64,000 nucleotides of DNA from Candidatus Microgenomates bacterium (GCA_016204995.1 JACQJR010000001.1:473666-537665), one strand, 5' to 3'; shown: positions 1,378 through 21,097, counted from the stretch's first letter. The notes: a model not told the origin generated them from the letters alone. Translations and numbers: made by a program.

Positions 1378-2772
1378 ATGGATGAACAACAAACTTTGTG
1401 GAAACAAACGCTGGAAGTGGTTAAAGTGTCTGTTTCGGCGGCCACTTTTTCTACTTGGTTTAGCCAAACATTTATTGTCAAAATTACTCCAGCCGCGCCT
1501 GACCGTCAAACAGTAGAAATCGGCTGCCCTTCCTCCTATATTTCTAACACCTTGGAAAAGCGCTATTTTGGCCTTTTACAAGATGGTTTAAATCAAATTA
1601 CTAAAAAAACCAATAATCTTATCTTTATAGTTAAACAAAATCCGTTTTTTGCCAAAACCAAAACAGAAATTGCTTCTCCGTTATTTAATCAAACCATACC
1701 TAGCTCCGACCATCTTAAAGACAGGCTAATCCGAGCCGGCTTACCAATCCATTTTACCTTTGAAAATTTTGCGGTTTCTGGATCTAATCAACTGGCTTGG
1801 GCCGCAGCCAACGCGGTAGCTAAAAATCCCGGCCATGCCTATAATCCTTTATTTATCTGGGGCGGAGTAGGGGTGGGTAAAACTCATTTAGCGATCGCTA
1901 CAGCCAGAGAAATTATTACCAGCCTTAACGACACCAAAGTTCTTTATTGCACTGGGGAAGAATTTATGGTGGAAATTATCAACGCCATCCGCACCAAAAC
2001 TACCAATGACTTCAAAAAAAAGTACCGCAATATTGAAGTATTAGTAATTGATGATGTCCAATTTATTGCCGGCAAACCTACAGTTCAGGAAGAATTTTTC
2101 CACACTTTTAATGCTATCCAAAAGGCCGGCAGCCAAATTATTATGACCAGCGACATGCCGCCTAATGATATTCCCAAACTGGCTGACCGTTTGCGCAGCC
2201 GTTTTGAAGCCGGCCTTATTGTAGATATTGGTCAACCCGACTTTGAACTACTATGCGCCATTCTTTTAATTAAAGTTAAAGAAAAAGAAATTGATCTGCC
2301 GATAGAGAGCATTCAAAAAATCGCTTCTTGTGTTGATTCACCAAGAGCTTTGGAAGGGTTTTTAATTAAACTCCAGTCTCAATCTAAATTACTTAATAAT
2401 CCTATCACTGAAGAATTAATTAATAAAATGACCGGCCAAAAAGAGGGAGTTAATAACTCCACTAATGGTAATGGCCAAAGCCACCAAGTTTCACCCCAGG
2501 AAGTTATTTCCCGGGTTTGTAATTATTTTTCGGTGCCTAAAAAGGCTATTATTGCTCATGGCCGGACTAAAACTTTAGCTCATGCCCGTCAGGTTTTAAT
2601 GTATATTTTAAGAGTAGAAATGAAATTATCTCTAGAAGAAATTGGTCATATTTTAGGTGATCGGGACCATACCACTGTTTTATATGGAGTAGGTAAAATT
2701 AATGAACTTATCCCCACATCTGGCGATGTGGAACAGCAAATCCTGGGGATAAAAAAACAATTATGGGGATAA
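1378..2772 (+). CDS. dnaA: Chromosomal replication initiator DnaA
   Basis: 464 aa. Walker A GGVGVGKTHL, AAA+ box VLVIDDVQFIAGK, and a C-terminal DNA-binding helix-turn-helix (VLMYILRVEMKLSLEEIG). Confidence 0.95.
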   Translation: MDEQQTLWKQTLEVVKVSVSAATFSTWFSQTFIVKITPAAPDRQTVEIGCPSSYISNTLEKRYFGLLQDGLNQITKKTNNLIFIVKQNPFFAKTKTEIASPLFNQTIPSSDHLKDRLIRAGLPIHFTFENFAVSGSNQLAWAAANAVAKNPGHAYNPLFIWGGVGVGKTHLAIATAREIITSLNDTKVLYCTGEEFMVEIINAIRTKTTNDFKKKYRNIEVLVIDDVQFIAGKPTVQEEFFHTFNAIQKAGSQIIMTSDMPPNDIPKLADRLRSRFEAGLIVDIGQPDFELLCAILLIKVKEKEIDLPIESIQKIASCVDSPRALEGFLIKLQSQSKLLNNPITEELINKMTGQKEGVNNSTNGNGQSHQVSPQEVISRVCNYFSVPKKAIIAHGRTKTLAHARQVLMYILRVEMKLSLEEIGHILGDRDHTTVLYGVGKINELIPTSGDVEQQILGIKKQLWG

Positions 2773-2918
2773 TTTTTAAATTATTAACAAACTAGTTTAG
2801 TTATCAAGATTGATTATTAACACAAGATCGTATTTAATATACACATTGGTATTTAAGTTGGTGTAGGCTTAATTATTCAGATATCAACAGTTACTACTAC
2901 AACTACTAGTATTAATAT

Positions 2919-4025
2919 ATGCAAATATCACTATTACAAGAAGAATTAATAAAGGGGATAAATACAGTTTACCGCTTTGTCAGTACTAAATCTCAACTTC
3001 CCATTCTTTCCCATATTCTAATTTCAATTGAAAAAGGTAGAATTAGACTTTGTGGTACTAATTTAGAATCAGGTATTAATTATTGGTTAGGAGCAAAGGT
3101 AGAAGAAGATGGGCAAATAGCAGTTCCAGCCAAGATTTTAGTAGATACTATTAGTAGTTTAAAACCGGGTAAAATAGAACTTACGGAAAAAGAGGGAATA
3201 TTAACCATCTCTTCTGGTAATTCATTAATTACTATTCCTACTATTCCAGCTAATGATTTCCCCCAAGTTGATTATGAGTTATCTAAACAAAAAATAGTTT
3301 TACCTAAAAATTTACTTGAAAGTATTGTTCATCAAGTATTATTTACCGCCGGAGGCGAGGAAGGGAGAGTAGAATTTACTGGGGTGTTATTTTGGCCTCG
3401 TGATAAAGAATTAGTAGTGGTAGCTACAGACGGTGTCAGATTATCTGTTAAAAGATTAACTACCTCTCTGGATTTACCAGGAAAAATGTTAATTCCCGCT
3501 AAAATTATCGGTGAAATTAATAAAATTTTTAATAACTCTGAAGTTAAATTTAGTTTTGATGAAGATAAAAATCAGGCATTATTTGGTAATGAAGATATAG
3601 TAGTAGTTTCTAAAGTATTGGATAGCGAGAAATATCCTGATTTTGAGCGAATTATTCCTCAAGGTGTTAATGTTACCATACTAGCTGATAAAGAAGAATT
3701 ACAAAATACCCTGAAACTCTCGGCTATTTTTTCCCGAGATTATGGAGTAAGACTAGAATTTGCCAATAATGAATGTGTTTTGGTTTCGGAAAATCCCCAA
3801 ACTGGCACTCAAAAATCCACAATTCCGGTTAAACTGGAGGGTGATAGTTTAATTATCTCCTTTAACTGGCGTTTTCTTAATGACTTTTTAAATTCAGTGA
3901 GTGGTAGCGAGGTAGAATTTAAGTTTGTTAATAATATGTCGCCTGGTTTATTTATTGACCCCAAAGACAAAACCTATACTCATTTAATTATGCCCATCCG
4001 GACTAACGAAGCAGAAAGTAGTTAG
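2919..4025 (+). CDS. dnaN: DNA polymerase III beta sliding clamp
   Basis: 368 aa immediately after dnaA. Three-domain clamp-like length. N-terminus MQISLLQEELIKGINTVYRFV is typical. Confidence 0.9.
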   Translation: MQISLLQEELIKGINTVYRFVSTKSQLPILSHILISIEKGRIRLCGTNLESGINYWLGAKVEEDGQIAVPAKILVDTISSLKPGKIELTEKEGILTISSGNSLITIPTIPANDFPQVDYELSKQKIVLPKNLLESIVHQVLFTAGGEEGRVEFTGVLFWPRDKELVVVATDGVRLSVKRLTTSLDLPGKMLIPAKIIGEINKIFNNSEVKFSFDEDKNQALFGNEDIVVVSKVLDSEKYPDFERIIPQGVNVTILADKEELQNTLKLSAIFSRDYGVRLEFANNECVLVSENPQTGTQKSTIPVKLEGDSLIISFNWRFLNDFLNSVSGSEVEFKFVNNMSPGLFIDPKDKTYTHLIMPIRTNEAESS

Positions 4026-4968
4026 AAGAAATGGCTGGGATACCTATTTGGGCAGTATTATTTTCTCCACCCAGAATAAATACCGGTGAAAGGATGGTAT
4101 TTTTAGGAGATAGGTAATAAACCAATTTACTTTTAGTGATTCCCAAACTATTGAGGGTAATTTGATCGTTTTCAGTAGATTGTCCACTATTAAAAATTTT
4201 TCCTTCAGTTAAAATCATTGCCTGGATTTCGCGAATATTTTTCAAAGGATAAGATGGGCCGGCTGTTAAATTAGGCAAAATAGTTGTTTTTAAGCTGTAA
4301 AGAGTTTTGTCGCGGCTAATTCTCATTATGGCTAGAGGTTGGCCAAAAAAGGTGGTAATGGAGATGTTATTAATTTGGGGAGTGGCAGTTAATTCCAGTA
4401 AATTTGCCCGGCTGATATCAGTTTCAGCTAAATTGTAGCCATTAGTTTTCAAAAAGCGCGTTTGTTGGACTTTAAATTCTAAATTTGAACTCAAACCTAA
4501 ATTTTTCGCCAGCTCGTTAAATAAATTTTCTACTTCATCGGTAGTGGGAAAAGGAAGTGTATTATCCTGGGGAGCTTGATAATGACCAAAACTAATTTCC
4601 CCATTGTTAATATTAACTGACAAAAACTTATCCTGATCATTCCAATAATAAACAGTTGATTGGGAATCCTGGACCATAGAAGGGGAGACAGTGAAGTTTA
4701 ATATTTTGGCTATATTGTTAATTTGTTCACTGGTTAAAGCAGTGTTTTTATAAGTATAAATAACAGCTTGGGTGGGAAGTGGGCTAGTGATATTAAAACT
4801 CAAAGAAGTATTAAGACTAATAGCCGGCCCTTCCAGTTCGGAGATGGTGATTTTTGGTAGGATGGGTAGTTTTTGTAAAGATTGGCCATATAACCATAGG
4901 GTTACCAAAAAAGTAGCCAACGCTCCTAAAAATATAAATAGCCAGTGCTTTTTAAGAAAATTAATCAT
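4003..4968 (-). CDS. Hypothetical membrane-anchored protein. Last gene of the T4SS-like operon.
   Basis: One N-terminal TM helix (HWLFIFLGALATFLVTLWLY), then a large extracytoplasmic domain. Start taken at the internal Met (MINFLKK) to avoid overlap with the upstream stop. Confidence 0.45.
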   Translation of the reverse strand: MINFLKKHWLFIFLGALATFLVTLWLYGQSLQKLPILPKITISELEGPAISLNTSLSFNITSPLPTQAVIYTYKNTALTSEQINNIAKILNFTVSPSMVQDSQSTVYYWNDQDKFLSVNINNGEISFGHYQAPQDNTLPFPTTDEVENLFNELAKNLGLSSNLEFKVQQTRFLKTNGYNLAETDISRANLLELTATPQINNISITTFFGQPLAIMRISRDKTLYSLKTTILPNLTAGPSYPLKNIREIQAMILTEGKIFNSGQSTENDQITLNSLGITKSKLVYYLSPKNTILSPVFILGGENNTAQIGIPAISSNYFLLR

Positions 4969-4970
4969 CT

Positions 4971-7241
4971 TTACCAACTGACTCCGCAATTATCAGCACA
5001 ACCCCGTTTAATTGCCAACGGAATAAATGGTGGTTCTATTGGTAAGCCTATAAATTGATAATGTAAATGCGGTCCTGTGGTGTAGGCGCCGGTGTTGCCG
5101 ACATTGCCTACCCGCTCTCCTTTATTAACATTTCTATTAATAATATCAGCATTATAAGAAGATAAATGGACGTAGCGGCTTCTGAATTCTTTACCGTTGC
5201 AAACTCCTACCACTTCCACTACATTGCCGCCGCCATAGGTGGGAGTATAAATAGCCCGGCCTTGATGGCTGGTAAAAACCGGCGTACCCACTTCATTGCC
5301 GCCAATATCTAAAGCCTCCAGGCTTTGATGTGAGTAGACTCCATCAGGACCTTGAGTAACTGTACCATGTTCTAACGGCCAGCCGGAGGGACAATCTTGT
5401 GGTGGAGAGCCGATGATGATGGTGACAGTCGTGCTATTGGTTTGAGTAGGTTGTTTTTCCACCGAAGCAGAAACAGTGACGGTGTTAATTAATAAACTAT
5501 CTTTCAACTGTTCTTTAATCTGACTAACATCAACAGTAAAAGTTTTTTGCCAACTATCAATTATTTCATCAGCCGTCCAGCTTTGAGAAGGAATAGTCGG
5601 GGCACTGCCTTGTTTACTGACGGTAAATTTATCTTCAATGGTGGCAGCAGTTAATTTGCCGCTTTTAGGAGAAACGGTAATGGTATAGGAAATACTATCA
5701 GGCAGATTGTCGTTGGTAAAAATTGTTTGGGGAGTGGTTTTAACGATGTTAATATATTTTGATTCTTCTTCTGCTCCGCCTAAAAAGGCGCTTTGGTGGG
5801 TATTAATATTAATCATAGTTAGTAAGATTAATACAGCAAAAATTCCAATAATAACTGCTAATACAATACCCCCTGAAACACCGGCAATGGTACCACCAAA
5901 CACCCCACTTACAGAAACTCCACCCAGGGAAGTTAAGCCTTTGAGAAAATTAAGGCCACCGCCTAAAAATTTACCCATTCCAGAAAAACCAGCTTGTAGG
6001 CCGCGAGCAGTAAGAGTTTGACCTGGACCAGTGATGGCGCGAGTGGCCATCTGTCCAATCTGACCTACCTGCGTAGGCAGGCCCACCGGACCAAAACCTA
6101 AAGCACTTTTCAAATCCTGGGGTGCACGAATGGTAATAATTTGTAATCGGGAGATAATGTTTGCTGATAAGTTACGCAAAGGAGAAGTAATAGTTCTAAC
6201 CAAAGGGCTTTGGCCAAGGCTGGTTAAGATGTTTTTTCTATTGCCGCCAGTGGTATTTTCCACTCCAACAAGCTTTTGATTTAGATCAAGTTTCAACTTA
6301 AAAACTTCCAGCTTAGCTTTTAATTGAGGTGTGGGTTCGCCAGAGCCACCAGCAATAGGTGGGCGGGTAGACATTGACCATTGGATATTTTCCGGATGAT
6401 TAATAGTATTAAGAATTGAAGAAAGTAAAGGATGTTGTCTTTCCCAGAGATTAAGAATACTAGCTTGTTTGAGTATGGCTTGGGCTACGTGGCGTTCACT
6501 TAAAGATGCTGTTTGACTAAAATTATTGGCGGCAGTAGTCAGTGATTGAGCAGTTACCCCCACTTGAGCTAGAGCTAAAGTAGAAGCTCCTTGAGGATTT
6601 TGTTTACCGAGAGCTTCTTGACCGAGAGAAATAGTACCTCGGATAATTTGTAAAGGTAAAGAGGAAATGGCATTGGTGACTTCTTTTAAAATAGGGGCGC
6701 TAACTTGGTTTTTGACTAGGTAAACTTCGCTGGGAACTGATTCAGTAGTGGGGGTAGAAGTTGGGGGCTGTGGGGCGGGCCGCAGGCTTTGAGCGCCTGC
6801 AGTGAGCGAAGTCGAACTGGGGTTAAGGGGTGGAGTGGCAGGAGAAGTAGTAGTAATAACCGGTCTTGTCTTAGTTAATGGTTCTGTTGTAGCCGCAGGC
6901 TGATCTGGCGGTTGGAATTTACCTTCTTTAATTAAATATTGGGCTACCACATATTGTCTAACCCATCTGCGGGCGTTCATTTTTATTTCTTCGTTGCGAC
7001 TTTGAACATCTTCCAGTTTTTGCACTAATTCTTTAAGGTTAGGGGGAATATTGGCAGTCAATTCACCACCGGCTATTTTTTCCAAAGTGATCACAACTTG
7101 TGAGAGGTCTTGCTTACCGAATAATTCAGTGACTATTTGGAAGAATTCTTCCCGGCTAAAATCCTGCCATATGAGCAAATGGGGGTCGCCGGCAAAGGCT
7201 TTAACGCCTTGCAATAAAAAATTGGCTAAATTTTGATTCAT
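4971..7241 (-). CDS. Membrane-anchored M23 (LytM-type) peptidoglycan peptidase. Cell-wall hydrolase of the T4SS-like locus (PrgK/TcpG-like role).
   Basis: 756 aa. Central TM cluster (IVLAVIIGIFAVLILL). The C-terminus has M23 motifs (HQSLEALDIG, GPHLHYQF). It is translationally coupled to virB4 by an ATGA overlap. Confidence 0.6.
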   Translation of the reverse strand: MNQNLANFLLQGVKAFAGDPHLLIWQDFSREEFFQIVTELFGKQDLSQVVITLEKIAGGELTANIPPNLKELVQKLEDVQSRNEEIKMNARRWVRQYVVAQYLIKEGKFQPPDQPAATTEPLTKTRPVITTTSPATPPLNPSSTSLTAGAQSLRPAPQPPTSTPTTESVPSEVYLVKNQVSAPILKEVTNAISSLPLQIIRGTISLGQEALGKQNPQGASTLALAQVGVTAQSLTTAANNFSQTASLSERHVAQAILKQASILNLWERQHPLLSSILNTINHPENIQWSMSTRPPIAGGSGEPTPQLKAKLEVFKLKLDLNQKLVGVENTTGGNRKNILTSLGQSPLVRTITSPLRNLSANIISRLQIITIRAPQDLKSALGFGPVGLPTQVGQIGQMATRAITGPGQTLTARGLQAGFSGMGKFLGGGLNFLKGLTSLGGVSVSGVFGGTIAGVSGGIVLAVIIGIFAVLILLTMININTHQSAFLGGAEEESKYINIVKTTPQTIFTNDNLPDSISYTITVSPKSGKLTAATIEDKFTVSKQGSAPTIPSQSWTADEIIDSWQKTFTVDVSQIKEQLKDSLLINTVTVSASVEKQPTQTNSTTVTIIIGSPPQDCPSGWPLEHGTVTQGPDGVYSHQSLEALDIGGNEVGTPVFTSHQGRAIYTPTYGGGNVVEVVGVCNGKEFRSRYVHLSSYNADIINRNVNKGERVGNVGNTGAYTTGPHLHYQFIGLPIEPPFIPLAIKRGCADNCGVSW

Positions 7242-9736
7242 GTTGACGGTTTGGGATTAGGAGTGAGGTTCCAAGTGACAGTGGCGGGTATGGTAGCAGT
7301 GGGTGGTTCTGGATTAGGGGCGGGTTGTGGATTTTGAATTGAGCCGAAGGATTGCCTAGCAGCTAGTTCTTCCGGCTTAGTAGTGATTAACGCATGTTCT
7401 TTTTCCGAAGCGACCGAGCGCATGGCGACGTGATGGGGTCCGGCAAAGAAAATACCTTCGCCAATATCAGCAGATAACAATAATTGTTTTTCTCCTTCAG
7501 AGAGATGAAAAACCTCACCCACCCGGTCAATAGCGCTAGCCGATTGTTTCATCAGAATCCGCATGGCGGCATTATTAACAATGGCTTTGCCGATTTCTTG
7601 AGCCAAGAAATCTTCTACGTCTTGGGTAATAGTGGATAGTCCCAGCCAATATTTACGGGCTCGCTTGGCAACAGACCATAGAAACATGGCTGAGTCTGGA
7701 TAGCGCATCATATGCCAAGCTTCATCCACAATTAAAATCCGCCGCTTGATATCGCGCCGGACCCTGGTCCAGATAAAGTCCAGAATAATAAACATGGCAA
7801 TTGGCCGCAAGGCATCCTCCAAGTCCCGCACGGAAAAAACCGTAAAAGGATTGGTAATATCAACCGTGGTATGCTGGTCAAAGATGCCGGTAAAACTACC
7901 CTTGACAAATTTTTCCAAACGGGCGGCTAAATTGGCCGCTTCCGGCTCTTCCATGCCGATAAAAGTTTTATATAAATCTTCCATTAAAGGGGCTTCGCGG
8001 TTGTGCGTTTGGGGGTCTTGGGTGATGCCTTTGGCCCGATAGGTAGATATCATCGCTCTGTCCAGCAAAGCCTCTTCCTGGGGCGTTAGTGCGCCCATAA
8101 TAACCTTAAAAAGGGAGTGGAGAGATAATAGTTTTAATGCCAGTTGGTTTTCCCCCGGCGCCTGGACGGTTTGTAAGTCAAAAGGATTAATTTTACTGGG
8201 GGAGCCAAAAGAAAAAGAAATTAATTGGCCGCCGACTGCTTCACATAAAGTCTGATATTCTGCTTCCGGGTCAATAATAATTATTTCTGTGCCTACCATC
8301 AAATAGCGTACAGCTTCTAATTTTACAAAGTAAGATTTGCCGCTGCCGGAAGTACCAAAAATAGTGGTATTGGGATTTTCCAGCTTAAAGCGGTCAAAAA
8401 TAATTAAAGAACCATTGTCTTCGTTAATGCCATACATTACCCCTTCTTCTTGAGATAGTTCTGCCGAGGTAAAGGGAAAGGTGGTAGACAGAGAAGAAGT
8501 GTCCATATTGCGGGTGATGGTCAACTCGTCATAACCCAAGGGCAAAGAAGAAATAAAGCCGTCTTCTTGAGACAGAGTAGCGGGTTTGGCATTAATTAAT
8601 AAAGCTCCTAAAGTGGACTGGATTTGTTTGGTAACATTTTCCAATTCTTCCCGATTGTCCGCCGGGATGGTAATGTAAAAACCAAACTGGAAAAAACGTT
8701 CGGCACCCCGCACCAGCTGCTCTTGCAGGCCAATAGCATCTTCCAGTTTAGCTTGGGTGCCGGGATTAATAATCCGGCCCCGTTGGACATCAGTAGATAT
8801 TTCTGCTTCCATCTCGGCAATTTTGCGGCGCAAATCATCCAAGACAGTTTTTCCTTCTACCGGATAGATAAAGAAAGATAAATTAAGAGTGTGGTCAAAA
8901 TTAATAATCGGATCCAGCCAGCCGGCGGTGACAAAGCGGGGATACCCCGAGACAAAGATGGTGCGATATAAACGGTTGTCCATATTAATAAAGGAAAAAT
9001 CAATTTCCATAGACAGGGGGGAGAGCAAATCTACCAAATTATTGTTATCATTTTGCAGGCCTGCCTGCGCAGACAGGCTGGAGCGCTCCAGATTTAAAGT
9101 TTGCTGTTGAGCCAGTAATTTATCCCGTATTTGCGGATTATAAAGTTCAAAGAAAACATCAGTCAGTTCGTCGGTGGTTAGTTGTCTAATTTTTAATCCC
9201 AGTCTGCCGGCCTGGCGGATTAAGTGATCGCGTTTAGGGTAAAGAGAAGTTTTGGCCTTTTTAATAATATAAGAACGGGAATAAGGTAATTTTTTCGGTT
9301 TTCTGGCCAACGTCAATAAAGCTTGCTTGACTCCTAATTCTAAAGGAGAGAAAGGAATAACAATAAAAAATCTTTTAGACAGCACCCCTTTTTTCTTGAC
9401 AGTTTGAGAAATAAAGTTTTTATACTCATCCATCATTTGTGACAGTTTGGGATTGGTTTGCTTTTGCCGGGCCTCTTCTAAAAAGTCCAGATACTGCAGA
9501 ACATCTTTTTTCTCTGAGCGAACGACAATTTGGGTGGGGAATGAAAGAGAGTTAATAAAGGAGGCGTAAGCGGCCAGAATAGCTTCCTGTTCCCGTTCAG
9601 ATAGTAAAGAAAAATTAAGGGAAGTAGAAGTAAGTACTAAAGCCGCGCCGCCATTTTTTAAAAGAACTAAATCTTCGGCAATATCGGCAATAGGTAACTG
9701 TGTTTGGGTGGAGGCAGTGATCGGTTTAGCAGCCAT
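7238..9736 (-). CDS. virB4: VirB4/TrbE/TraC-family type IV secretion ATPase
   Basis: 832 aa. Walker A GTSGSGKS, Walker B ILIVDEAWHMM, and a VirB4-like LGLSTITQDVEDF segment. Confidence 0.8.
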   Translation of the reverse strand: MAAKPITASTQTQLPIADIAEDLVLLKNGGAALVLTSTSLNFSLLSEREQEAILAAYASFINSLSFPTQIVVRSEKKDVLQYLDFLEEARQKQTNPKLSQMMDEYKNFISQTVKKKGVLSKRFFIVIPFSPLELGVKQALLTLARKPKKLPYSRSYIIKKAKTSLYPKRDHLIRQAGRLGLKIRQLTTDELTDVFFELYNPQIRDKLLAQQQTLNLERSSLSAQAGLQNDNNNLVDLLSPLSMEIDFSFINMDNRLYRTIFVSGYPRFVTAGWLDPIINFDHTLNLSFFIYPVEGKTVLDDLRRKIAEMEAEISTDVQRGRIINPGTQAKLEDAIGLQEQLVRGAERFFQFGFYITIPADNREELENVTKQIQSTLGALLINAKPATLSQEDGFISSLPLGYDELTITRNMDTSSLSTTFPFTSAELSQEEGVMYGINEDNGSLIIFDRFKLENPNTTIFGTSGSGKSYFVKLEAVRYLMVGTEIIIIDPEAEYQTLCEAVGGQLISFSFGSPSKINPFDLQTVQAPGENQLALKLLSLHSLFKVIMGALTPQEEALLDRAMISTYRAKGITQDPQTHNREAPLMEDLYKTFIGMEEPEAANLAARLEKFVKGSFTGIFDQHTTVDITNPFTVFSVRDLEDALRPIAMFIILDFIWTRVRRDIKRRILIVDEAWHMMRYPDSAMFLWSVAKRARKYWLGLSTITQDVEDFLAQEIGKAIVNNAAMRILMKQSASAIDRVGEVFHLSEGEKQLLLSADIGEGIFFAGPHHVAMRSVASEKEHALITTKPEELAARQSFGSIQNPQPAPNPEPPTATIPATVTWNLTPNPKPST

Positions 9737-9739
9737 AAC

Positions 9740-9832
9740 ATTAAATTTTTAATTTCTAATTACTAATTTCTAATCAAATCCCAAATTGGGAAATTTCTAA
9801 ATCTTGGTAATTTTTTAGGTCAATTCTTTAAT
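9740..9832. repeat. Intergenic repeat copy (module A plus a partial module B) upstream of virB4
   Basis: ttaatttctaattactaatttctaatcaaatcccaaattgggaaatttctaa...ttaggtcaatt, directly abutting the virB4 start codon. Confidence 0.6.
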
Positions 9833-10982
9833 TTGCCCTAGCTTTAATGGCCAAAGGTTGAACGATTTGATTACTAATTTCTACTTGAATCGGGTCGAAT
9901 ATCAAACCTTCTTTCTCTACCATAATTTCATATTGGCCTGGCATTAAAGGGGTGGCGGTTAAAAAGTGGCCGACTTTATTAGTGCGTAAAGCCCGGACTG
10001 GCCGGCCCTCACTGTCTTTAATTTCAATAATGGCCGCTTCAATTACTTTATCTTGGGGATCTATGACTTGGCCAACAATAATGTTGGGAGCAGCCGGAGC
10101 AGGCGGAGGCACAGAGGATATTTCCAGCCTTGGTGCATTTAGACGGGGGCGGCCAGGGCCACGGCGGGGCATCACCTCTGGTCTAAAGACTGGCGATAAT
10201 GGTGAAAAAGGCATAGGCGTAGCACTGGTAAACATGGAAGGAGGATTTTGGGGAGGAGGGGGCGCCACCTGAACCGGTGCATTATAGGGTACAGTAGTCA
10301 CTTTTTGATTGAGCCAGACAGGAATTTGGGTTGGGGGTTGTGGGTTAGGAGTTATGGGTGGAGAAGGTGGGGCGTATTGGGTTTGCAGTGATGGTTCAAT
10401 CGCGGAAGTCTGTGCTGCCTGAACTGGTTCTACCTCTTGGACAGGCTGGACCGATTGGGGTGCCGATGTTGGCCGCAGGCCCTGAGCGGAGTCGAAGGGT
10501 GATTTGACAGTAGGAAATAAAGAAAGCATTTTTTGGAAAAATGATCGTTCTTTTTCTTCCAGGCTAGAAACAGCTGGTTCTTCAGAAGTAGCAGGGGTGG
10601 CTAGATAAATTTCCGCCGCTTGCTCTCCGCCAGGCGTGGCCGCTATTTGCATGACCGAGACCGGCCCGGTTTCCGGCGCAAAGGTGTCAAAAGCGGCTCC
10701 TTTTTGCCAGGCAAATTTAGTAGGAGAATAAATGGCCCGCAAAAAGGCCACAAACCACATTGATAAGGGCCGATCTTCAATCGGCAGGAAAGCAAAGGCG
10801 ACGCCTAAACCGCTAAACAAAAAAATAATTGGCCATTTGATAAAACCGGGTAAAGGCGAAGCGTAAAAAAGCAAAGCCACTAAGGCGCCACCAGCCACTT
10901 GAAAGAACTGCTTTAAGGTCATGTCGCCGACCAAACGGAACTCATAACTGGCAATATTTTGCGGTACCGGGTGCTGCTGCAT
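9828..10982 (-). CDS. Two-TM membrane protein with a proline-rich linker and a C-terminal transthyretin/CarbopepD-regulatory-like beta domain. First gene of the virB4 operon; possible VirB3-like role.
   Basis: N-terminal hairpin of 2 TM helices (GGALVALLFYASPLPGF / IIFLFSGLGVAFAFL). Long P/Q-rich low-complexity segment. C-terminal GQYEIMVEKEGLIFDP motif. Confidence 0.45.
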   Translation of the reverse strand: MQQHPVPQNIASYEFRLVGDMTLKQFFQVAGGALVALLFYASPLPGFIKWPIIFLFSGLGVAFAFLPIEDRPLSMWFVAFLRAIYSPTKFAWQKGAAFDTFAPETGPVSVMQIAATPGGEQAAEIYLATPATSEEPAVSSLEEKERSFFQKMLSLFPTVKSPFDSAQGLRPTSAPQSVQPVQEVEPVQAAQTSAIEPSLQTQYAPPSPPITPNPQPPTQIPVWLNQKVTTVPYNAPVQVAPPPPQNPPSMFTSATPMPFSPLSPVFRPEVMPRRGPGRPRLNAPRLEISSVPPPAPAAPNIIVGQVIDPQDKVIEAAIIEIKDSEGRPVRALRTNKVGHFLTATPLMPGQYEIMVEKEGLIFDPIQVEISNQIVQPLAIKARAN

Positions 10983-10989
10983 AAAAGTT

Positions 10990-11100
10990 TAAAATTCGAA
11001 GCACGAATATCGAAGCTCGAAACAAATTCTAATGTTTTGAATTTTAAATATTTGAAACTTAAATATTGTTTCGGATTTCGGATTTAGGATTTCGTGCTTA
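10990..11100. promoter_or_regulatory. Long imperfect inverted repeat in the divergent intergenic region between the T4SS operon and the methyltransferase gene
   Basis: ttcgaagcacgaatatcgaagctcgaaac ... gtttcggatttcggatttaggatttcgtgcttat. The arms are reverse-complementary over about 30 nt. Confidence 0.4.
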
Positions 11101-11192
11101 TATTCTAAGGTATCATATGAAACGCAAGATGCAAGTTTTGTAAATTTACACGGAAGTTGCGGGTAGAGTACACTTAGGTCATATTTGAGACC

Positions 11193-11723
11193 TTGGGCAT
11201 ATTATTGTTACTCTTAGTGGCTTTATTTTTTATGCTGCCGTATTTGCGCAGCGGCACGAAATTCGGCGCGCCGTTTGTACCAATGGGTAAAGATGTGGTA
11301 GCGCGGGTGATGAAATTAGGAGAAGTAGGTCCGGGTAAAAAGTTTTATGATTTAGGATCAGGTGATGGCCGGTTGGTGATTGCCGCAGCCATGTTGGGAG
11401 CAGAGGCGGTAGGGGTGGAAATTGATGCGATCCGGGTTCTTTATTCAAGGCTGTGGTTAAAAGTGTTGGGTATTAAGAATGCCAGAATTATTAAGGGAAA
11501 TTTGTTTGATCAGGATTTAAGTAGCGCTGATATTGTCAGTCTGTATCTACTAGAAGAAACTAACGAAAAGTTAAAACCCAAACTGGAAGAAGAATTAAAA
11601 CCAGGAACGCCAGTAGTAGCCACCGGTTTTCCTATTCCCGGTTGGAAGCCAATTAAAGTTGATCCCCATGGTCCAGTCTACGGACCGATATACTTTTATA
11701 AAAAGATAAATTCTAAGCACTAA
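11193..11723 (+). CDS. Small class I SAM-dependent methyltransferase (TTG start as drawn in the ORF track)
   Basis: SAM-binding motif I YDLGSGDGRLVIAAAMLGAEAVGVEID, followed by an acidic post-motif II. Confidence 0.55.
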   Translation: MGILLLLLVALFFMLPYLRSGTKFGAPFVPMGKDVVARVMKLGEVGPGKKFYDLGSGDGRLVIAAAMLGAEAVGVEIDAIRVLYSRLWLKVLGIKNARIIKGNLFDQDLSSADIVSLYLLEETNEKLKPKLEEELKPGTPVVATGFPIPGWKPIKVDPHGPVYGPIYFYKKINSKH

Positions 11724-11747
11724 GCCCTAAATTCTAAATAAATTAGA

Positions 11748-12110
11748 ATGATCAAACAGCAAAATTCAAAACAATATGATTTAGAAGAGAGGACGCTAAA
11801 TTTTGCTAAAAGAGTGAGGTTGTTTGTCGTTAAGTTTCCTAAAACAATTAGTAATATTGAAGATGGAAAACAACTAGTAAGATCTTCAGGATCGGTAGGA
11901 GCAAATTATATAGAAGCAAATGAGTCTTTAAGTAAAAAGGATTTTGTAATGAGAATTAAGATTTGTCGCAAAGAAGCAAAAGAAAGTAGGTATTGGTTAT
12001 TGTTAATTGAACCCTTAGAAGAAAATAGAAAAGAAAAAGACGAATTATTACAAGAAGCAATGGAATTAACAAAAATTTTCGGCTCAATTGTAGAAAAATC
12101 TAGAGTTTGA
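11748..12110 (+). CDS. Four-helix-bundle protein (TIGR02436 / 23S rRNA intervening-sequence protein family)
   Basis: 120 aa. Family signature YDLEERT...SSGSVGANYIEAN...KICRKEAKESRYWL. Paralog of 19906..20298. Confidence 0.7.
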   Translation: MIKQQNSKQYDLEERTLNFAKRVRLFVVKFPKTISNIEDGKQLVRSSGSVGANYIEANESLSKKDFVMRIKICRKEAKESRYWLLLIEPLEENRKEKDELLQEAMELTKIFGSIVEKSRV

Positions 12111-12169
12111 AAATTTGTTAAATTTGAAATTGAATATTATTTAGGATTTAGATATTAGAATTTAGGATT

Positions 12170-13120
12170 TTAGAGTGTATCTGCACATGGTTGGCAGATC
12201 TTGCACGGACCTACTTCGCGGCTTTTATTACAGACTCGGCAAACTCCAAAATGCCATCCTTCCTCATGTGTTGCTGTTTTCAAACTGCCATCAGCATTCA
12301 TTTGATAATAATTAAATTCATATCCTTGCATTAATTCTAAATTAGAAATACCGCAGCCAAATTTTTTAGTATCCATTCTCCACCCCATTTCCATCATTTG
12401 TCTTTCTGCCAAAGCTCCAGCCAGTAAATAATCGTAATTAGTTTGGGCTTCACTAATAAGAGAGATTACTGCTTGGGTAATTGAGCGCGCATCTTGTTTG
12501 GCTACTTCCTTAATTTTTTCCGGAGCGGCGGTTTTAATGGCTTGCCAGATTTGGGGTAAGGGAATAAGATTTTCCAAAAAGGTAAATTCGTCATCCGGTC
12601 TGGGAAGGTGAAAAGTCATGCTTCTGATATCTTTAATATTGGTAATCGGCGGATAGGGCATGGGTGATAAATCGGTAATTTTCCTGGCTATGTCTATATA
12701 TTTTTCCTCAATCCATGAATCAATAGGAATGCCCCAACAATTAATAATTTTCCCTGAAAGGGCCCCTTCGGGGTTGGTGGTGCTGATACCAACTACTAAT
12801 CTACCTTCTGGATAGGGTTTAGGCGGGCTGAACCAGATGGCTAGGCTATCTTCTTTTTGGCCTAGAAAATAATTTTTAAACATTAATGCAGCCAGAGCTG
12901 TCTCGCGGTCTAATTCTGTCTCCCAGGCACAACCTTCTACTAAATCTCTATCATTTTCATTAACCAGTTGATCTTGGTTTACCTTTAACTGATAAGGATT
13001 AATTCGTTGATCTGGGGGAACATCATTAACTTCAATTGCGAGAGATGCTAAATCATCCACCAGTTGGAAGGAAGAAGCTTTCTGATATAAACTGGTATCA
13101 AAGGCCAGACGTTCAGCCAT
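12170..13120 (-). CDS. Hypothetical protein with a C-terminal Cys-rich zinc-ribbon-like tail
   Basis: 316 aa, no TM. C-terminus CRVCNKSREVGPCKICQPCADTL (CxxC...CxxC...C). Confidence 0.45.
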   Translation of the reverse strand: MAERLAFDTSLYQKASSFQLVDDLASLAIEVNDVPPDQRINPYQLKVNQDQLVNENDRDLVEGCAWETELDRETALAALMFKNYFLGQKEDSLAIWFSPPKPYPEGRLVVGISTTNPEGALSGKIINCWGIPIDSWIEEKYIDIARKITDLSPMPYPPITNIKDIRSMTFHLPRPDDEFTFLENLIPLPQIWQAIKTAAPEKIKEVAKQDARSITQAVISLISEAQTNYDYLLAGALAERQMMEMGWRMDTKKFGCGISNLELMQGYEFNYYQMNADGSLKTATHEEGWHFGVCRVCNKSREVGPCKICQPCADTL

Positions 13121-13281
13121 AGTTCCTGCTCGGGATAAATTAAGAAGTTGCTAGTTTTCTGGCTATAACAGTTGCGGCACAGCTCCGGAATTACACCGGA
13201 ATTCCTTCAACACAACTTCGTTATTGACTATGTCAAAGATAGAATTGACTGTCAAGGGGGTTTTCGTGTTAAAATGCAGAC

Positions 13282-15681
13282 ATGGATGAAACTGCCCAAG
13301 ATAATCCTATGAGCATAGAACAACCACGATCAATTGAAGAAGCTCAAGTGGCTAAAGCCGTAGAACAGGCTTCTGGTTTTGAGCAGTTCCGCCGCGCCGG
13401 CGAAATAAAATCTCCTGCAGATTTAGCACCAAGTGTCCAGGCGGTGAAAGGTGTAGAAAATATGGCACAACAAGTCGAATCAGATGAAGAGAGGAGTAGG
13501 CGTGAACAAGCAGAAAGAGAGTTTGCGGAGTTAACTCATTTAGAATCGTTAACAGCGGAGCGCTCTTTCAGAAAAATAGAGAGAGCATCAGTAGAGGAGT
13601 TGGAATATTATTCTCCAGAACAAGTAGGGCTTCTTTTCTTAAGAAAAATTGAGAATACATTAGTGGCATTACAGGAATACGGGAAAATGCCTGAAGATTT
13701 TAGATGGGTTTCTCAAAGCGAGTTAAGAGAATTAGAAAAAGTTATCCAAACATTAGAAGAATTACCAACCTCCACTGTTCAGCAAAGAATACGGCAAGGT
13801 TATCCCGAAATAAGGATGGAGCATTTAGTTAAGATGGGAAATGAGCAATTGGGAGATTATATCAAAATAGATCGGGCTTTAAAAATATATCGTAGTTTAC
13901 AGGAAGCGGTTGTTTTAGAGCCCAGAGAATTGAGGCTGCAACAAGCTTTAGAAGCTACTATACTGGTCGCTGCCAAAAAAGAGGGTGTAGAAAGAGAAAA
14001 TAAGGAAGAATCCATTAGTGAGTTGGATAAGTTGGTTAGGCGAAAAGTACAAGATGCGATAAAAGAAACTTTTGGTAGTAGAGCAGAAAAGCTTAAGGCA
14101 TTAGAAAAAGCTATGATTGGTTTTAATCATATTGTAGAGTTTTATGGTGAGGTGCAAAAACCTTTGTCTGCGGAGGTTAGAGAATATCATCATTTTGTAG
14201 GAAATGCTGCTAGAAGGGATAAGGTTGTTCCAACAGGATCTGACTACAAGGGTTTGTTCTTCGCACCCGAGCTTTTGCCTGATACCCCCCCCCTAAGCCA
14301 ATTAATAGAAGGAACATTAAGGCCTTTACTTGATGTAGTAATGGGTGAGGAGGAGAATATGCCCAATATATATATTAGAGAACCATCTGCGGAAAAAAGG
14401 AGACAGCTTTTAGAATTTTTAGAGAATAAATTATTTTATGATCAACATTTAAATGATAAAGAGATTGTTATTGATCCTTCTAAAGAGATGCACAAACATC
14501 TTGCAAATGTAGCTGCTAGGATCGCATTATTATTAATTCATCATTGGGATGTTCATGAATCAGCTGTTTGTGCTGCAGAATATGGTGAAGAAGGCAAGTT
14601 TAAAAAAATTACCGTAGAAACAAGTTACGGTGATCAATACAAAATGCAGTTTCCTGCTGCTAGAGCTATTGGGGAATGGAAAGCATTTCGTTCCCCCTTT
14701 GGCAATCCCGCCTATACCGGAGCAATGTTTGCCCTGACCGATAATTATCTTAAGGTAGTAGCTCCTTTGCTAGAAAGTAATGATGGTATTTCGTTGAGAG
14801 TGTCCTTATGGGATTTAATAAAAACCCATGGTTTTAGTTTAAAAGATGTGCCTTGGCTGGGAGAAGATTTAATAATTGATCCAAATGAGTTAATAATTAA
14901 AGAAGAAAAAGATGAAGGTAAGATAACTGCGCAAAGGCTTCCTTTAAATCTTAGAACTAACCTTCAAAATATTAAATATAGAGGTGAATCCAAAAATTGG
15001 AAGAAGATGACTGGTTTTCGAGAGGATTCGTTAGCAGTACCTTGGGGATTACATCTTGCCTATCTAGGTGCCTTTTATGATGCCATGACCACCACAAATT
15101 TTGCTAAATTACTAGAAAATATGGGCAATGTGGATTTTTGGGATGATTTTAATAAAGGCTTTGATATAGGGTCCAAAATTTATTTAAGTTCTAGGGGTCT
15201 TAACGAAGAAACAATATTTAAATTAATGCTAATTGCCAAAATTAATTTAGTGGCAGGTATAAATGCTGCTATACAAGATAAGCAAATGATTACAGATGTT
15301 GAATTACGTCGTTTGCGGACCAGGCATGGTGGTGGTGCCGGTTTAAGTGAGCAAGAAATCTTTGATGCTATTTTTAAAAGTGGTTTTTTAGCAGAGAGCA
15401 TGAATGTGGTAAAAATTGGCCAAAGTGAATACCCTATAAATATTGATGTTAGAAATTTAATAAATAATGTTAAAAAACAAAAGAGGGGTATTGTTCCAGG
15501 AGATGTATTAATAAAAGATTTGTTTAGTAATATAGAAATACAGCAAATAGAAAATAGTAAAGTCTATAGACCATACCGCTTACATCGTGAAAAAGAGTTT
15601 ACCGATCAAAAAGGAAAAGATCCTCTTTATATTATTGACGCTCTTGAGGATGCTATCGCTAATCCTCTAGATAGGGCTTGA
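13282..15681 (+). CDS. Large hypothetical soluble protein (799 aa) with an acidic coiled-coil N-terminus and no recognisable domain
   Basis: Long uninterrupted ORF with coding-like composition. Divergent from 12170..13120. No TM helices and no known motif found by eye. Confidence 0.5.
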   Translation: MDETAQDNPMSIEQPRSIEEAQVAKAVEQASGFEQFRRAGEIKSPADLAPSVQAVKGVENMAQQVESDEERSRREQAEREFAELTHLESLTAERSFRKIERASVEELEYYSPEQVGLLFLRKIENTLVALQEYGKMPEDFRWVSQSELRELEKVIQTLEELPTSTVQQRIRQGYPEIRMEHLVKMGNEQLGDYIKIDRALKIYRSLQEAVVLEPRELRLQQALEATILVAAKKEGVERENKEESISELDKLVRRKVQDAIKETFGSRAEKLKALEKAMIGFNHIVEFYGEVQKPLSAEVREYHHFVGNAARRDKVVPTGSDYKGLFFAPELLPDTPPLSQLIEGTLRPLLDVVMGEEENMPNIYIREPSAEKRRQLLEFLENKLFYDQHLNDKEIVIDPSKEMHKHLANVAARIALLLIHHWDVHESAVCAAEYGEEGKFKKITVETSYGDQYKMQFPAARAIGEWKAFRSPFGNPAYTGAMFALTDNYLKVVAPLLESNDGISLRVSLWDLIKTHGFSLKDVPWLGEDLIIDPNELIIKEEKDEGKITAQRLPLNLRTNLQNIKYRGESKNWKKMTGFREDSLAVPWGLHLAYLGAFYDAMTTTNFAKLLENMGNVDFWDDFNKGFDIGSKIYLSSRGLNEETIFKLMLIAKINLVAGINAAIQDKQMITDVELRRLRTRHGGGAGLSEQEIFDAIFKSGFLAESMNVVKIGQSEYPINIDVRNLINNVKKQKRGIVPGDVLIKDLFSNIEIQQIENSKVYRPYRLHREKEFTDQKGKDPLYIIDALEDAIANPLDRA

Positions 15682-15707
15682 AAATCGTTTTTATTTAATT
15701 ACCTAAC

Positions 15708-17093
15708 CTATCCAAAGAATCTTCTTGTTACACCTTGTGTTATACCGCCCAAAGCTTGTTGGATTTGTGCTTGAGCTTGGGGTAGTTGTATAGGAATAGG
15801 TTTCGTGCCAAGTAGTTGATTAATTATATCTGGTATAGTAGGCAGAAGCATAACAGCTCCTAATCCAATCATACCCTGAATTATAGTTGCTCCTCCTCCT
15901 ACGTAAGGGGGTGTCCATAATGCTCCTCCTGCTTGTCCTACTAACTCAATTAAAACTCCGGTTAAAAAAATAATTATTCCAACTGTTGGAAAAACAAGAA
16001 CATTTGCTAAAACTCCTCTTAACCATGAATTCCATATTCCTTCTCCGCGTATAGCTCCCCACAGTATAAAAAGAGGAGCTAGTATAAGGTAAAATAATAG
16101 AAGTAGATAGGATCTAGCAAGAGCGAATAATACGCGAATAAGAAAGAATAAAACTGCGAGTATAAGCATAAGTAGAACTGGTAAAAATGGACTGGCAACC
16201 GCCCCAATCGCTTGCCCTAGAGTAAGTACGGTGCCAGCGGCTGAAGGTATTTTTGTCAATAGTAATACTACAGCTGCTAGTATGCCAGCTATTGCCGCTC
16301 CAATACCTGCCGATAGTCCCCCTAATCCTTGAGCAATATTCCAAGCCCCCCCCATTCCTTGGCTAGAGATGAATCCTATTGTTTGGGCAAAACCCGCTGA
16401 TGTATATTCCTGATATCTAGCTGAGGGATCAATTATGACAGTGAGACCTGTAGAGTGTAAACCAAATACCAGTAAGCCAAAGCCCAAGTATGTCAGATCG
16501 ATTATAAATCCCACAATAGCATAAGAGAATGTTACAAATATGAGGGCTATAACAATACGAGGTAAAGCTGATTGTATGGTGATAACTGCTTGAGGGGAAA
16601 TCTTAGTGCGTAGCATAATAGCTACACCAAAACCTACTGCTGCTATCACGAAAAGTAAGTAGGTAAAATTCCTGGTGGCACTCCAAGCCATTTGAAATGG
16701 GTTAATAGCATTAAAGCCAAATCCGGTTTGGGCGTAAGCTGGTTGAACTATATTCATTCGTCGTCCCAGATCTGCTAGGTAACTCACGCCCGAGGCTGGT
16801 GGGTGTGTAACCATGCCTGCTATAGCGTTTCCGGTAGCAGGTATAGCGCCTATTTTCAACTCATCTGGACAGGTTTCATTAGCACACCCTACTAACATAG
16901 TTGTTAATCCTCCCATTAATCCTGTTAGGCTTTGGAAATCAAAGCTTTCTTTGTTATATTGATTCTTTGATATATTTAGCTGGAAATCTCCTAAATTAAG
17001 AGTGCCAATAGTTGCATAGGCAGGTGAGGTTGTGAACAAGAGTCCAAAAATAAAGATTAAAATAATTACTTTCCAGTTTTTAAGAATATTCAT
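15708..17093 (-). CDS. Polytopic membrane protein, VirB6/TrbL-like candidate of the T4SS-like locus
   Basis: 461 aa. Signal peptide (FTTSPAYA), a periplasmic segment, then at least 6 hydrophobic helices rich in G/A/L. Confidence 0.45.
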   Translation of the reverse strand: MNILKNWKVIILIFIFGLLFTTSPAYATIGTLNLGDFQLNISKNQYNKESFDFQSLTGLMGGLTTMLVGCANETCPDELKIGAIPATGNAIAGMVTHPPASGVSYLADLGRRMNIVQPAYAQTGFGFNAINPFQMAWSATRNFTYLLFVIAAVGFGVAIMLRTKISPQAVITIQSALPRIVIALIFVTFSYAIVGFIIDLTYLGFGLLVFGLHSTGLTVIIDPSARYQEYTSAGFAQTIGFISSQGMGGAWNIAQGLGGLSAGIGAAIAGILAAVVLLLTKIPSAAGTVLTLGQAIGAVASPFLPVLLMLILAVLFFLIRVLFALARSYLLLLFYLILAPLFILWGAIRGEGIWNSWLRGVLANVLVFPTVGIIIFLTGVLIELVGQAGGALWTPPYVGGGATIIQGMIGLGAVMLLPTIPDIINQLLGTKPIPIQLPQAQAQIQQALGGITQGVTRRFFG

Positions 17094-17135
17094 GCTTTAA
17101 TTATACATTGTCAATTTTCAATTATGAATTAGCTG

Positions 17136-18578: not shown

Positions 18579-18579
18579 G

Positions 18580-18693
18580 TTTTAAATTTCTAATTACTAA
18601 TTTTTAATTTCTAATCAAATTCCAAGATTGGGAAATTTCCCCAATTAGGATTTATTTAGATTAATTAGAATAATTAGGTCAATTAGGTTAATT
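18580..18693. repeat. Full intergenic repeat unit (module A + module B)
   Basis: taaatttctaattactaatttttaatttctaatcaaattccaagattgggaaatttcc...ttaattagaataattaggtcaattaggttaattct. Confidence 0.65.
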
Positions 18694-19023: not shown

Positions 19024-19112
19024 TAATTTAGTGTATCAATAGCTTAGGCAAGAAGCAAGTCATGACAGTGAGTTATGTTGAAATACTTATAGTAGTGAGC
19101 AACGCCGAACTA

Positions 19113-19502: not shown

Positions 19503-19517
19503 AGTTACAATTAAATT

Positions 19518-19841: not shown

Positions 19842-19844
19842 AAT

Positions 19845-19905
19845 TATATTTAAATTTCTAATTACTAATTTTTAATTTCTAATCAAATCCCAATTCGGAA
19901 ATTAT
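19845..19905. repeat. Intergenic repeat copy (module A)
   Basis: taaatttctaattactaatttttaatttctaatcaaatcccaattcggaaat, abutting the paralog 3 start. Confidence 0.6.
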
Positions 19906-20298: not shown

Positions 20299-20347
20299 TC
20301 TTTAGATCAATTAGAAATTAGGTCAATTAGAGTAATTTAATTCTCCT

Positions 20348-20725: not shown

Positions 20726-20732
20726 ATTTTAT

Positions 20733-21095: not shown

Positions 21096-21097
21096 GT

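Follow-up and report, generated by a model that had tools for sequence, protein, structure and literature searches.

In a survey of 3,035 Patescibacteria genomes by Quinonero-Coronel et al. (2025), the VirB4 ATPase of type IV secretion systems (T4SSs) was identified in 2,417 of them, forming a clade nested in MPF_FATA (PMC12102498). As further parts of these systems, PrgI/VirB3, TrsD and VirB6 homologues and M23 or lysozyme genes were described, together with pilin arrays of 2-11 genes, which are especially frequent in Microgenomatia and Saccharimonadia (PMC12102498). In Paceibacteria and Microgenomatia, the T4SS was found in proximity to dnaA/dnaN; relaxases were almost absent from the surveyed genomes, and homologues of the type IV coupling protein (T4CP) were present in most of them, near virB4 in a minority (PMC12102498). 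This paper will focus on a T4SS locus in 64,000 nucleotides (nt) of a metagenome-assembled genome of Candidatus Microgenomates bacterium (GCA_016204995.1, JACQJR010000001.1:473666-537665), referred to as the window, which contains both the T4SS genes on the dnaN side and a second block of such genes. The locus is a real and intact type IV secretion cluster, fixed beside the replication origin of this bacterium, which belongs to the candidate phyla radiation (CPR). It is of the Patescibacteria kind already described in papers from 2023 to 2025 and is a good example of it, with nothing that is categorically new.

For Southlakia epibionticum, it was shown by transposon sequencing that the T4SS is essential for growth on the host (Wang et al. 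2023; PMC10633639). The Southlakia locus, SEML1_0004-0019, is located beside dnaA/dnaN, and epibiotic growth requires most of its genes. On the minus strand, it codes in the order of transcription for PrgI, a TrsD-like protein, VirB4, a peptidase, a lysozyme and small exported proteins (SEML1_0010 to 0004), and the pilins are encoded on the plus strand from SEML1_0014 onward (PMC10633639). In a review from 2025 it was concluded that T4SS essentiality does not derive from DNA uptake, since comEC is dispensable, and exchange with the host through a pilus conduit was brought forward as a speculation (PMC12857230). A second system for comparison is the one of plasmid pCF10 from Enterococcus faecalis, the MPF_FATA prototype, with the gene order prgH (polytopic), prgI, prgJ (VirB4 of the CD1110 family), prgK (wall hydrolase) and prgL (small bitopic protein). 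To our knowledge, the Patescibacteria T4SS is the sole T4SS known to be essential for the growth of its bearer, and its substrate and mechanism are unexplained.

In the window, the T4SS genes form two blocks on the minus strand, 4003-10982 and 15708-22703, which are separated by an insert of 4.7 kb. A first-pass annotation, made from the sequence, had described the first block as a T4SS core operon. Its four genes were recovered in the order and at the positions given there, encoding a PrgI/VirB3-like protein, VirB4, an M23 peptidase and a bitopic protein; as a correction, the T4SS as a whole is in two blocks split by four unrelated genes (11193-15681). The second block codes for a polytopic protein of 461 amino acids (aa), an exported protein of 480 aa and eight proteins with the pilin domain PF18895, with one 23S_rRNA_IVP gene among the latter. 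All T4SS open reading frames (ORFs) are intact. The virB4, M23 and bitopic-protein genes are tightly coupled: the ATGA overlap between the virB4 stop and the M23 start was confirmed, and the M23 stop is followed after a gap of 2 nt by the next ATG. In a promoter and terminator scan of the window, terminator counts were those expected by chance, and clear operon boundaries were not found. The genes of the locus and its context are as follows.

1378-4025, plus strand: dnaA and dnaN (Pfam) with the probable oriC; context, not part of the machine.
4003-4989, minus strand: bitopic membrane protein (p328 in the following), likely start at ATG 4968 giving 321 aa, predicted YycH/YycI/YpeB-like extracytoplasmic fold.
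4971-7241, minus strand: membrane-anchored M23 peptidoglycan peptidase, 756 aa (PF01551), at the position equivalent to VirB1/PrgK.
7238-9736, minus strand: VirB4 ATPase, unsplit, 832 aa, with a TrsD-like N-terminal region (NCBIfam conju_CD1110, P-loop_TraG, structure 4AG5).
9828-10982, minus strand: PrgI/VirB3-like protein, 384 aa, hairpin of two transmembrane helices (PF12666 and CarboxypepD_reg).
15708-17093, minus strand: polytopic membrane protein of 461 aa with a signal peptide and about seven transmembrane helices, VirB6-like candidate (fold and position).
17136-18578, minus strand: exported protein, 480 aa, N-terminal signal or transmembrane segment; lysozyme-like (SLT_3-type) domain probable at the C-terminus (family alignment).
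18694-19023, minus strand: VirB2-type pilin 1, 109 aa; PF18895 40.9 bits; orthologues in the related loci L016, L017 and L020 51-59% identical.
19113-19502, minus strand: VirB2-type pilin 2, 129 aa; PF18895 35.7 bits; orthologues 56-69% identical.
19518-19841, minus strand: VirB2-type pilin 3, 107 aa; PF18895 30.9 bits; collinear orthologues.
20348-20725, minus strand: VirB2-type pilin 4, 125 aa; PF18895 31.1 bits; collinear orthologues.
20733-21095, minus strand: VirB2-type pilin 5, 120 aa; PF18895 25.8 bits, just below the cutoff of 26.6; orthologues 46-56% identical.
21098-21496, minus strand: VirB2-type pilin 6, listed with 132 aa, probably starting at an internal methionine (MRKLLGF); PF18895 29.2 bits.
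21459-21782, minus strand: VirB2-type pilin 7, 107 aa; PF18895 38.3 bits and a weak match to TrbC/VirB2 (PF04956).
21921-22703, minus strand: pilin 8, 260 aa; PF18895 at residues 192-250, preceded by a Cys-containing N-terminal extension of ~190 aa.

The likeness to the Patescibacteria systems, including that of Southlakia, comprises an MPF_FATA VirB4 with PrgI/VirB3 directly upstream, a TrsD-like module, a candidate VirB6-like protein, a divergent PF18895 array, peptidase and lysozyme-like genes (in Southlakia placed downstream of virB4), no relaxase or T4CP gene nearby, and a convergent arrangement with dnaN/dnaA at the origin. However, virB4 is one ORF of 832 aa in the window and is split into TrsD and VirB4 in Southlakia, and the pilin genes share the strand of the core genes, whereas those of Southlakia are on the opposite strand. 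The terminal gene of the window locus codes for the 321 aa YycH/YycI/YpeB-like protein, where smaller prealbumin-like/BT0923-like and PEGA proteins are found in Southlakia. In addition, an NTF2-like (VirB8-like) gene was not recognised in the window, and its locus is split by the four unrelated genes.

Compared to pCF10, the VirB6-like, PrgI-like, VirB4, M23 and p328 genes take the places of prgH, prgI, prgJ, prgK and prgL. With this order, and with a VirB4 of the CD1110/MPF_FATA type, the description of the locus as a minimal T4SS of Gram-positive style was borne out. VirB4 and PrgJ share 25% identity (E 8e-41), whereas sequence similarity to PrgH, PrgK and PrgL was not found, and the PrgI-like protein carries an extra C-terminal extension of ~290 aa. 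The plasmid further differs in containing the T4CP PcfC, a relaxase, MobC and surface adhesins, and in lacking pilins.

For the comparison of loci, VirB4 relatives were collected by a scan of one genome per species. This resulted in 578 confirmed relatives, of which the best 80, with 49-76% identity to the VirB4 of the window, were used; single loci are cited by L numbers. Where lineages are named among these 80, they are Woese-, Gottesman-, Ames-, Curtiss-, Shapiro-, Roizman-, Davies- and Beckwithbacteria and some Paceibacteria, and many other records are labelled just 'bacterium', 'uncultured bacterium' or Gammaproteobacteria/Pseudomonadales. Third-party annotation (TPA) records of metagenome-assembled genomes (L001, L003, L005, L006 and many more) go under the titles 'uncultured Gammaproteobacteria', 'Pseudomonadales' and, in one case, 'Candidatus Methanoperedens', despite clearly Microgenomatia-type virB4-dnaN-dnaA loci; these records are probably mislabelled or mis-binned.

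VirB4 matched the NCBIfam family conju_CD1110 ('VirB4-like conjugal transfer ATPase, CD1110 family') with 411.7 bits at a cutoff of 325, and Pfam P-loop_TraG with an E-value of 7e-34. The C-terminal domain matched the structure of Thermoanaerobacter VirB4 (4AG5) at 1e-50 and R388 TrwK at 1e-6. Both nucleotide-binding motifs were found, Walker A as GTSGSGKS at residue 461 and Walker B as ILIVDE at residue 667. The closest plasmid-encoded VirB4 proteins are those of Firmicutes and Actinobacteria, with 26-38% identity. The N-terminal region at residues 15-127 matched NCBIfam TrsD (E 2.7e-5). Two ORFs take the place of a single virB4 in 67 of the 80 loci, one TrsD-like with ~230 aa and one coding for the ATPase with ~620 aa, often with overlaps of 1-4 nt; the unsplit form is present in the window and only a few relatives, among them L001, L007 and L077.

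The PrgI-like gene ends 91 nt upstream of virB4. Its product contains two adjacent transmembrane helices (26-44 and 48-66), a Pro-rich middle region and a C-terminal CarboxypepD_reg-like beta-sandwich. The match of the window protein to PF12666 reached 24.2 bits, which is under the Pfam gathering score of 27. In a family alignment of the window protein with 60 homologues from related loci, PF12666 matched all 61 sequences (E < 1e-3) and CarboxypepD_reg 50 of them; since every aligned sequence matched PF12666, the VirB3/PrgI assignment is sound at the family level. A PrgI homologue is encoded immediately upstream of virB4 in 69-71 of the 80 loci. The usual length of PrgI/VirB3 is about 100 aa; in these lineages the protein is 300-500 aa long, with a Pro-rich linker and a conserved C-terminal beta-sandwich.

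In the M23 peptidase, PF01551 was identified at residues 644-730 (E 9e-13). The membrane anchor that had been annotated is present, as a single transmembrane helix in a central position (459-477) and not at the N-terminus. In the translation, the motifs HLH and YVHLS are canonical, and the first zinc-ligand motif (residues about 640-660) reads H-x6-D (SHQSLEALD), where H-x3-D is the usual form.

The gene following the peptidase gene had been annotated as coding for a membrane protein of 328 aa. The gene was confirmed, whereas the length has to be corrected, since the likelier start at ATG 4968 gives 321 aa, in agreement with the NCBI record HY404_02460. The protein has one N-terminal transmembrane helix. 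A search of a library of 1.84 billion proteins (E < 1e-3) revealed a family of 331 representatives, nearly all with a length of 320-350 aa. Sequence and profile searches of this family against Pfam and the PDB gave nothing meaningful, and a profile comparison with pCF10 PrgL was negative. In the AlphaFold2 model, calculated from an alignment of 101 sequences (mean confidence pLDDT 92.9, predicted template-modelling score pTM 0.86), the transmembrane helix is followed by three alpha/beta modules, and a Foldseek search with this model retrieved YycH and YycI at E-values of 3e-6 to 3e-5 with a probability of 1.0. The model thus confidently predicts a YycH/YycI/YpeB-like (PepSY-related) fold with an N-terminal anchor and tandem alpha/beta modules, and not a clear VirB8.

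Members of the p328 family are present in 30 related loci. All 31 family members in such loci are encoded directly downstream of a large protein of 520-1611 aa on the same strand, and in 12 of these 31 large proteins an M23 domain was detectable with a single sequence as query. The hydrolase and p328 genes are located upstream of prgI in Paceibacteria-type loci and downstream of virB4 in Microgenomatia. By analogy, p328 may be the membrane-anchored partner of the wall hydrolase. In Bacillus, the partnership of YpeB with SleB is established, and YycH/YycI act with WalK. These pairs serve as an analogy for p328, to which sequence similarity was not found, and the presumed partners differ: an M23 peptidase in a T4SS operon here, a spore cortex lytic transglycosylase and a histidine kinase in Bacillus.

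The first-pass annotation had further placed a VirB6-like and an SLT-like gene at 15.7-18.6 kb. For the first of these, the 461 aa protein, 133 homologues were found, none with a Pfam domain. With its AlphaFold2 model (pLDDT 84.4) as Foldseek query against the PDB, chains of R388 TrwI/VirB6 made up eight of the top nine matches, with E-values of 0.03-1, probabilities of 0.54-0.99 and target-normalised template-modelling scores of 0.38-0.41; the identity of the TrwI chain was verified against the R388 sequence (NC_028464). Sequence or profile similarity to TrwI or PrgH was not found, with an hhalign probability of 0.2% for TrwI. Besides these top PDB matches, the likeness to TrwI consists in multiple membrane passes and in a gene placed within a T4SS locus; TrwI has 342 aa, whereas the window protein has 461 aa and a signal peptide. 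The gene lies between the pilin array and prgI, a position kept in 26 loci. Taken by fold and position, a VirB6-like protein is the best reading of this gene, though not a proven one.

The 480 aa protein has an N-terminal signal or transmembrane segment and is a short member of a family of 800-1370 aa proteins. It had no direct match in Pfam, and SLT_3 was missed even with the C-terminal fragment as query. In the family, built iteratively with 14 aligned sequences including the window protein, SLT_3 was detected in two members, M23 in two and Peptidase_C39_2 in one. Residues 366-439 of the window protein, including a WIEES motif, matched the C-terminal domain of the family at 23 bits. This indirect evidence suggests a lysozyme-like domain.

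The annotated pilin array was confirmed with eight genes matching PF18895 (T4SS_pilin), seven of them above the gathering score. Among themselves, the window pilins have a mean pairwise identity of 28.6% (range 18-45%). Pilins 1-6, however, have counterparts in the same order in L016, L017 and L020, with identities of 40-69%. Since the pilins are divergent among themselves yet collinear with, and similar to, their counterparts elsewhere, the array appears to be old, with individually maintained paralogues. Pilin 8, the first gene of the array, is similar to the product of 2-448 in L080 (E 1e-26) and could be a tip or adhesin-type subunit. Two genes for 23S_rRNA_IVP proteins (PF05635, four-helix-bundle) were identified inside the T4SS locus, one at 11748-12110 on the plus strand and one in the middle of the pilin array at 19906-20298 on the minus strand. 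In three relatives, homologues are encoded immediately upstream of prgI (L027 8458-8835, L032 358-744, L036 8540-8917).

At the origin, the p328 gene and dnaN share 23 nt (4003-4025) at the 3' end of dnaN. A perfect DnaA box was identified at 1318 and three boxes with one mismatch at 2708, 2744 and 2764 (to 2772), and the GC skew changes its sign, with a minimum, near 2.4-2.6 kb. In the related loci, dnaA/dnaN are located within 10 kb of virB4 in 61 of 80 cases, with a median gap of 2.2 kb. The arrangement in these 61 loci is convergent, as in the window, in 40 and co-directional in 19, and two have dnaA upstream; the co-directional loci are mostly labelled Pacebacteria/Paceibacterota or generic, with one from Roizmanbacteria. 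An order shared by L011, L012, L016, L017, L020, L023 and L031 is pilin array, exported protein of 800-1370 aa, VirB6-like gene, opposite-strand ORF, prgI, TrsD-like ORF, virB4, gene for a large, often M23-containing protein, p328-like gene and dnaN. The GC content of the core T4SS genes (0.41-0.45) is inside the window range of 0.33-0.48. Both the synteny at the origin and the GC content argue for a fixed chromosomal feature and not a recent insertion. The annotation as core rather than mobile, for which a synteny comparison across CPR genomes and a check of GC skew and codon usage had been proposed, thus agrees with the two fixed arrangements beside dnaA/dnaN, and by these sequence comparisons the system is core and, as far as they reach, vertically inherited.

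Transcription of the T4SS genes runs towards dnaA and the origin in 59 of the 61 loci. In the window they thereby meet the replication fork head-on and lie on the lagging strand (4003-22703, with oriC at about 1.3-2.9 kb). Such an orientation is uncommon among genes that are presumed to be essential and to profit from origin-proximal dosage.

That the locus is inactive, as the remnant of an ancient integrated element, is very improbable. The insert of unrelated genes at 11193-15681 does interrupt it, and a coupling protein was not found, as might be expected of a remnant. However, the ORFs are intact, Walker A and B are preserved and the translational coupling is kept. Conservation extends to prgI beside virB4 in about 70 of 80 loci, the VirB6-like gene in 26 loci and p328 in 30, with hundreds of p328 representatives, and the homologous Southlakia genes are essential (PMC10633639).

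Neither a relaxase nor a coupling protein had been seen in the first-pass annotation, and several searches of the 64 kb gave the same result: none was found in Pfam scans of the large ORFs, no window ORF was matched by phmmer queries with R388 TrwB and TrwC, and a hidden Markov model (HMM) of Microgenomatia T4CP-like proteins matched none even at E < 10 with filters off. In a Walker A scan of the window, VirB4 was the only P-loop ATPase without another explanation. Integrase and recombinase families were likewise absent from the scanned window ORFs, mostly those of at least 140 aa.

These results bear on the question of whether the locus provides mating-pair formation for a conjugative or mobilisable system whose coupling protein and relaxase are encoded elsewhere in the genome. 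The VirB4 is of the conjugative CD1110/MPF_FATA type, most surveyed Patescibacteria genomes do contain T4CP homologues, a minority of them near virB4 (PMC12102498), and in eight related Microgenomatia loci a T4CP-like gene (Walker A GKTGTGKS, similarity to R388 TrwB) lies inside the locus. However, 64 kb without T4CP, relaxase or integrase, and a locus that is fixed beside dnaA/dnaN across the whole class, are hardly expected for such a system, and VirB2 pilins are atypical of monoderm conjugation systems. Moreover, 109 relaxases were counted in the 3,035 Patescibacteria genomes, and the T4CP homologue of Southlakia is not essential, whereas its T4SS genes are (PMC12102498). A role in conjugation is therefore judged quite unlikely.

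A comFC-like gene, annotated near 30.8 kb, is present at 30775-31455, and a DNA-uptake machine, ComB-like or Ced-like and working with competence genes, had been offered as an alternative on this account. The archaeal DNA importer CedB is among the weak NCBIfam matches of VirB4, but with 44.6 bits at a cutoff of 700, and CedD reached 28.6 at a cutoff of 600. In the class ABY1, comF, recG and radA co-localise with T4SS genes (PMC12102498). In the window, however, 8 kb separate comFC from the pilin array; it is encoded on the other strand and follows after SpoIID, the transfer-messenger RNA (tmRNA) gene and a MunI restriction-modification pair, and ComB components of the VirB7, VirB9 and VirB10 type were not found in Pfam scans of the window. 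In Saccharibacteria, deletion of comEC ends competence and leaves viability unaffected, and competence is credited to type IV pili, whereas the T4SS is essential (PMC12857230). The alternative thus gained no support, and DNA uptake is considered unlikely as the task of the system.

Because no relaxase or coupling protein is encoded nearby and because of the fixed place at oriC, a role in host contact and transfer is most likely rather than conjugation. We therefore favour, with good though not full confidence, a chromosomal, vertically inherited Patescibacteria T4SS for contact with a host cell and transfer to or from the host. The identity of the system is secure; its proposed function, that of an envelope machine driven by VirB4 and bearing a pilus, is deduced from a cultivated relative that is only distantly related. 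In such a machine, the PrgI/VirB3-like hairpin protein would anchor the hexameric VirB4 ATPase at the membrane. VirB4 would power the assembly of the channel around the VirB6-like protein, and the extraction and polymerisation of the VirB2-type pilins from the eight-gene array. The M23 peptidase and the lysozyme-like protein would open the peptidoglycan for the apparatus, and the YycH/YycI/YpeB-like protein, translated right after the M23 gene, may position or restrain the hydrolase, as YpeB does SleB.

Several points weigh against this assignment. The VirB6 candidate was selected by non-significant Foldseek E-values (best 0.03), low template-modelling scores and position, and the lysozyme-like call for 17136-18578 is indirect. 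The first zinc motif of the M23 peptidase has a non-canonical spacing, with catalytic competence still probable, and no clear NTF2-like VirB8 equivalent was found in the window. The essentiality and the host role assumed for Microgenomatia are extrapolated from Saccharibacteria. The absence of coupling protein and relaxase applies to the 64-kb window, and in sister lineages the locus does include a T4CP-like gene.

The insert between the two blocks contains four genes.

11193-11723, plus strand: methyltransferase, not T4SS-like.
11748-12110, plus strand: 23S_rRNA_IVP protein, not T4SS-like.
12170-13120, minus strand: protein of 316 aa (p316), not T4SS-like.
13282-15681, plus strand: soluble orphan of 799 aa (p799) in the slot between the VirB6-like gene and prgI; membership in the system uncertain.

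For p799, matches in Pfam, the PDB and PADLOC were not obtained, and transmembrane helix and P-loop were not found. A degenerate coupling protein was considered and rejected, since the hhalign probability was 0.1% and both P-loop and transmembrane helix are missing; likewise, p799 and p316 were rejected as defence genes, with no PADLOC match. Nearly all Woesebacteria-type loci contain an opposite-strand ORF of 520-920 aa between the VirB6-like gene and prgI. That these large ORFs are one fast-evolving family was also discarded, since BLASTP and HMM iteration left mostly singletons. Among 20 slot ORFs scanned against Pfam, just one ClpB-like and one T4CP-like protein were identified. T4CP-like slot ORFs with the Walker A motif GKTGTGKS and similarity to TrwB are present at L005 6259-8451, L043 6286-8481, L046 6387-8573, L052 6297-8471 and L058 1036-3237, all on the minus strand; with the T4CP-like genes upstream of prgI in L025, L033 and L042, this gives the eight related loci mentioned above.

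A joint reading of the hydrolase pair and the slot is put forward tentatively, as a proposal that is rather doubtful. The hydrolase and the YycH/YycI/YpeB-like protein might be a regulated breaching module that moves as a unit and may target the wall of the host instead of the cell's own wall. The slot orphans of Woesebacteria-type loci, p799 included, which are large, soluble and unrelated to one another, might be lineage-specific substrates or receptors that replace the coupling protein held there in Gottesmanbacteria- and Roizmanbacteria-type loci. If this were true, the slot orphans would be the first candidate cargo for this essential and functionally unexplained secretion system.

The window thus offers a clean example from the class Microgenomatia, where homologues of VirB6 and VirB8 had been reported to be scarce. 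What it adds are leads rather than results: p328 as a possible hydrolase partner, a fold-level VirB6 candidate, an unsplit VirB4, pilins that appear ancient and are collinear, and a variable slot in which candidate cargo or receptor proteins may be sought by groups with cultivated relatives.

Other genes identified by Pfam in the window are rnpA, yidD, dnaA, dnaN, SpoIID, the MunI restriction-modification pair, the ComFC-like gene, DnaG, sigma-70, ATP-citrate-lyase-like subunits, a DEAD helicase, BipA and a P-type ATPase. At 41761-44476 on the plus strand, three adjacent genes resemble parts of ATP-citrate lyase or citryl-CoA synthetase/lyase (ATP-grasp_2/Citrate_bind; CoA_binding/Ligase_CoA; the Citrate_synt C-terminal domain), which is unexpected in a metabolically reduced CPR genome. 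The genes for the MunI-family restriction endonuclease and for an MT-A70 methyltransferase are convergent neighbours (28593-29189, plus strand, and 29192-29908, minus strand) just after the tmRNA gene (27852-28215), and tmRNA genes are a classic site of integration. An ORF of 340 aa at 31822-32844 on the minus strand overlaps tRNA-Ser (32705-32790, minus strand); because of this overlap, its true start must lie further downstream, or the ORF is partly spurious. The tRNA-Ser/tRNA-Arg cluster at 32.7-34.5 kb contains five of the eight tRNA and tmRNA genes of the window.

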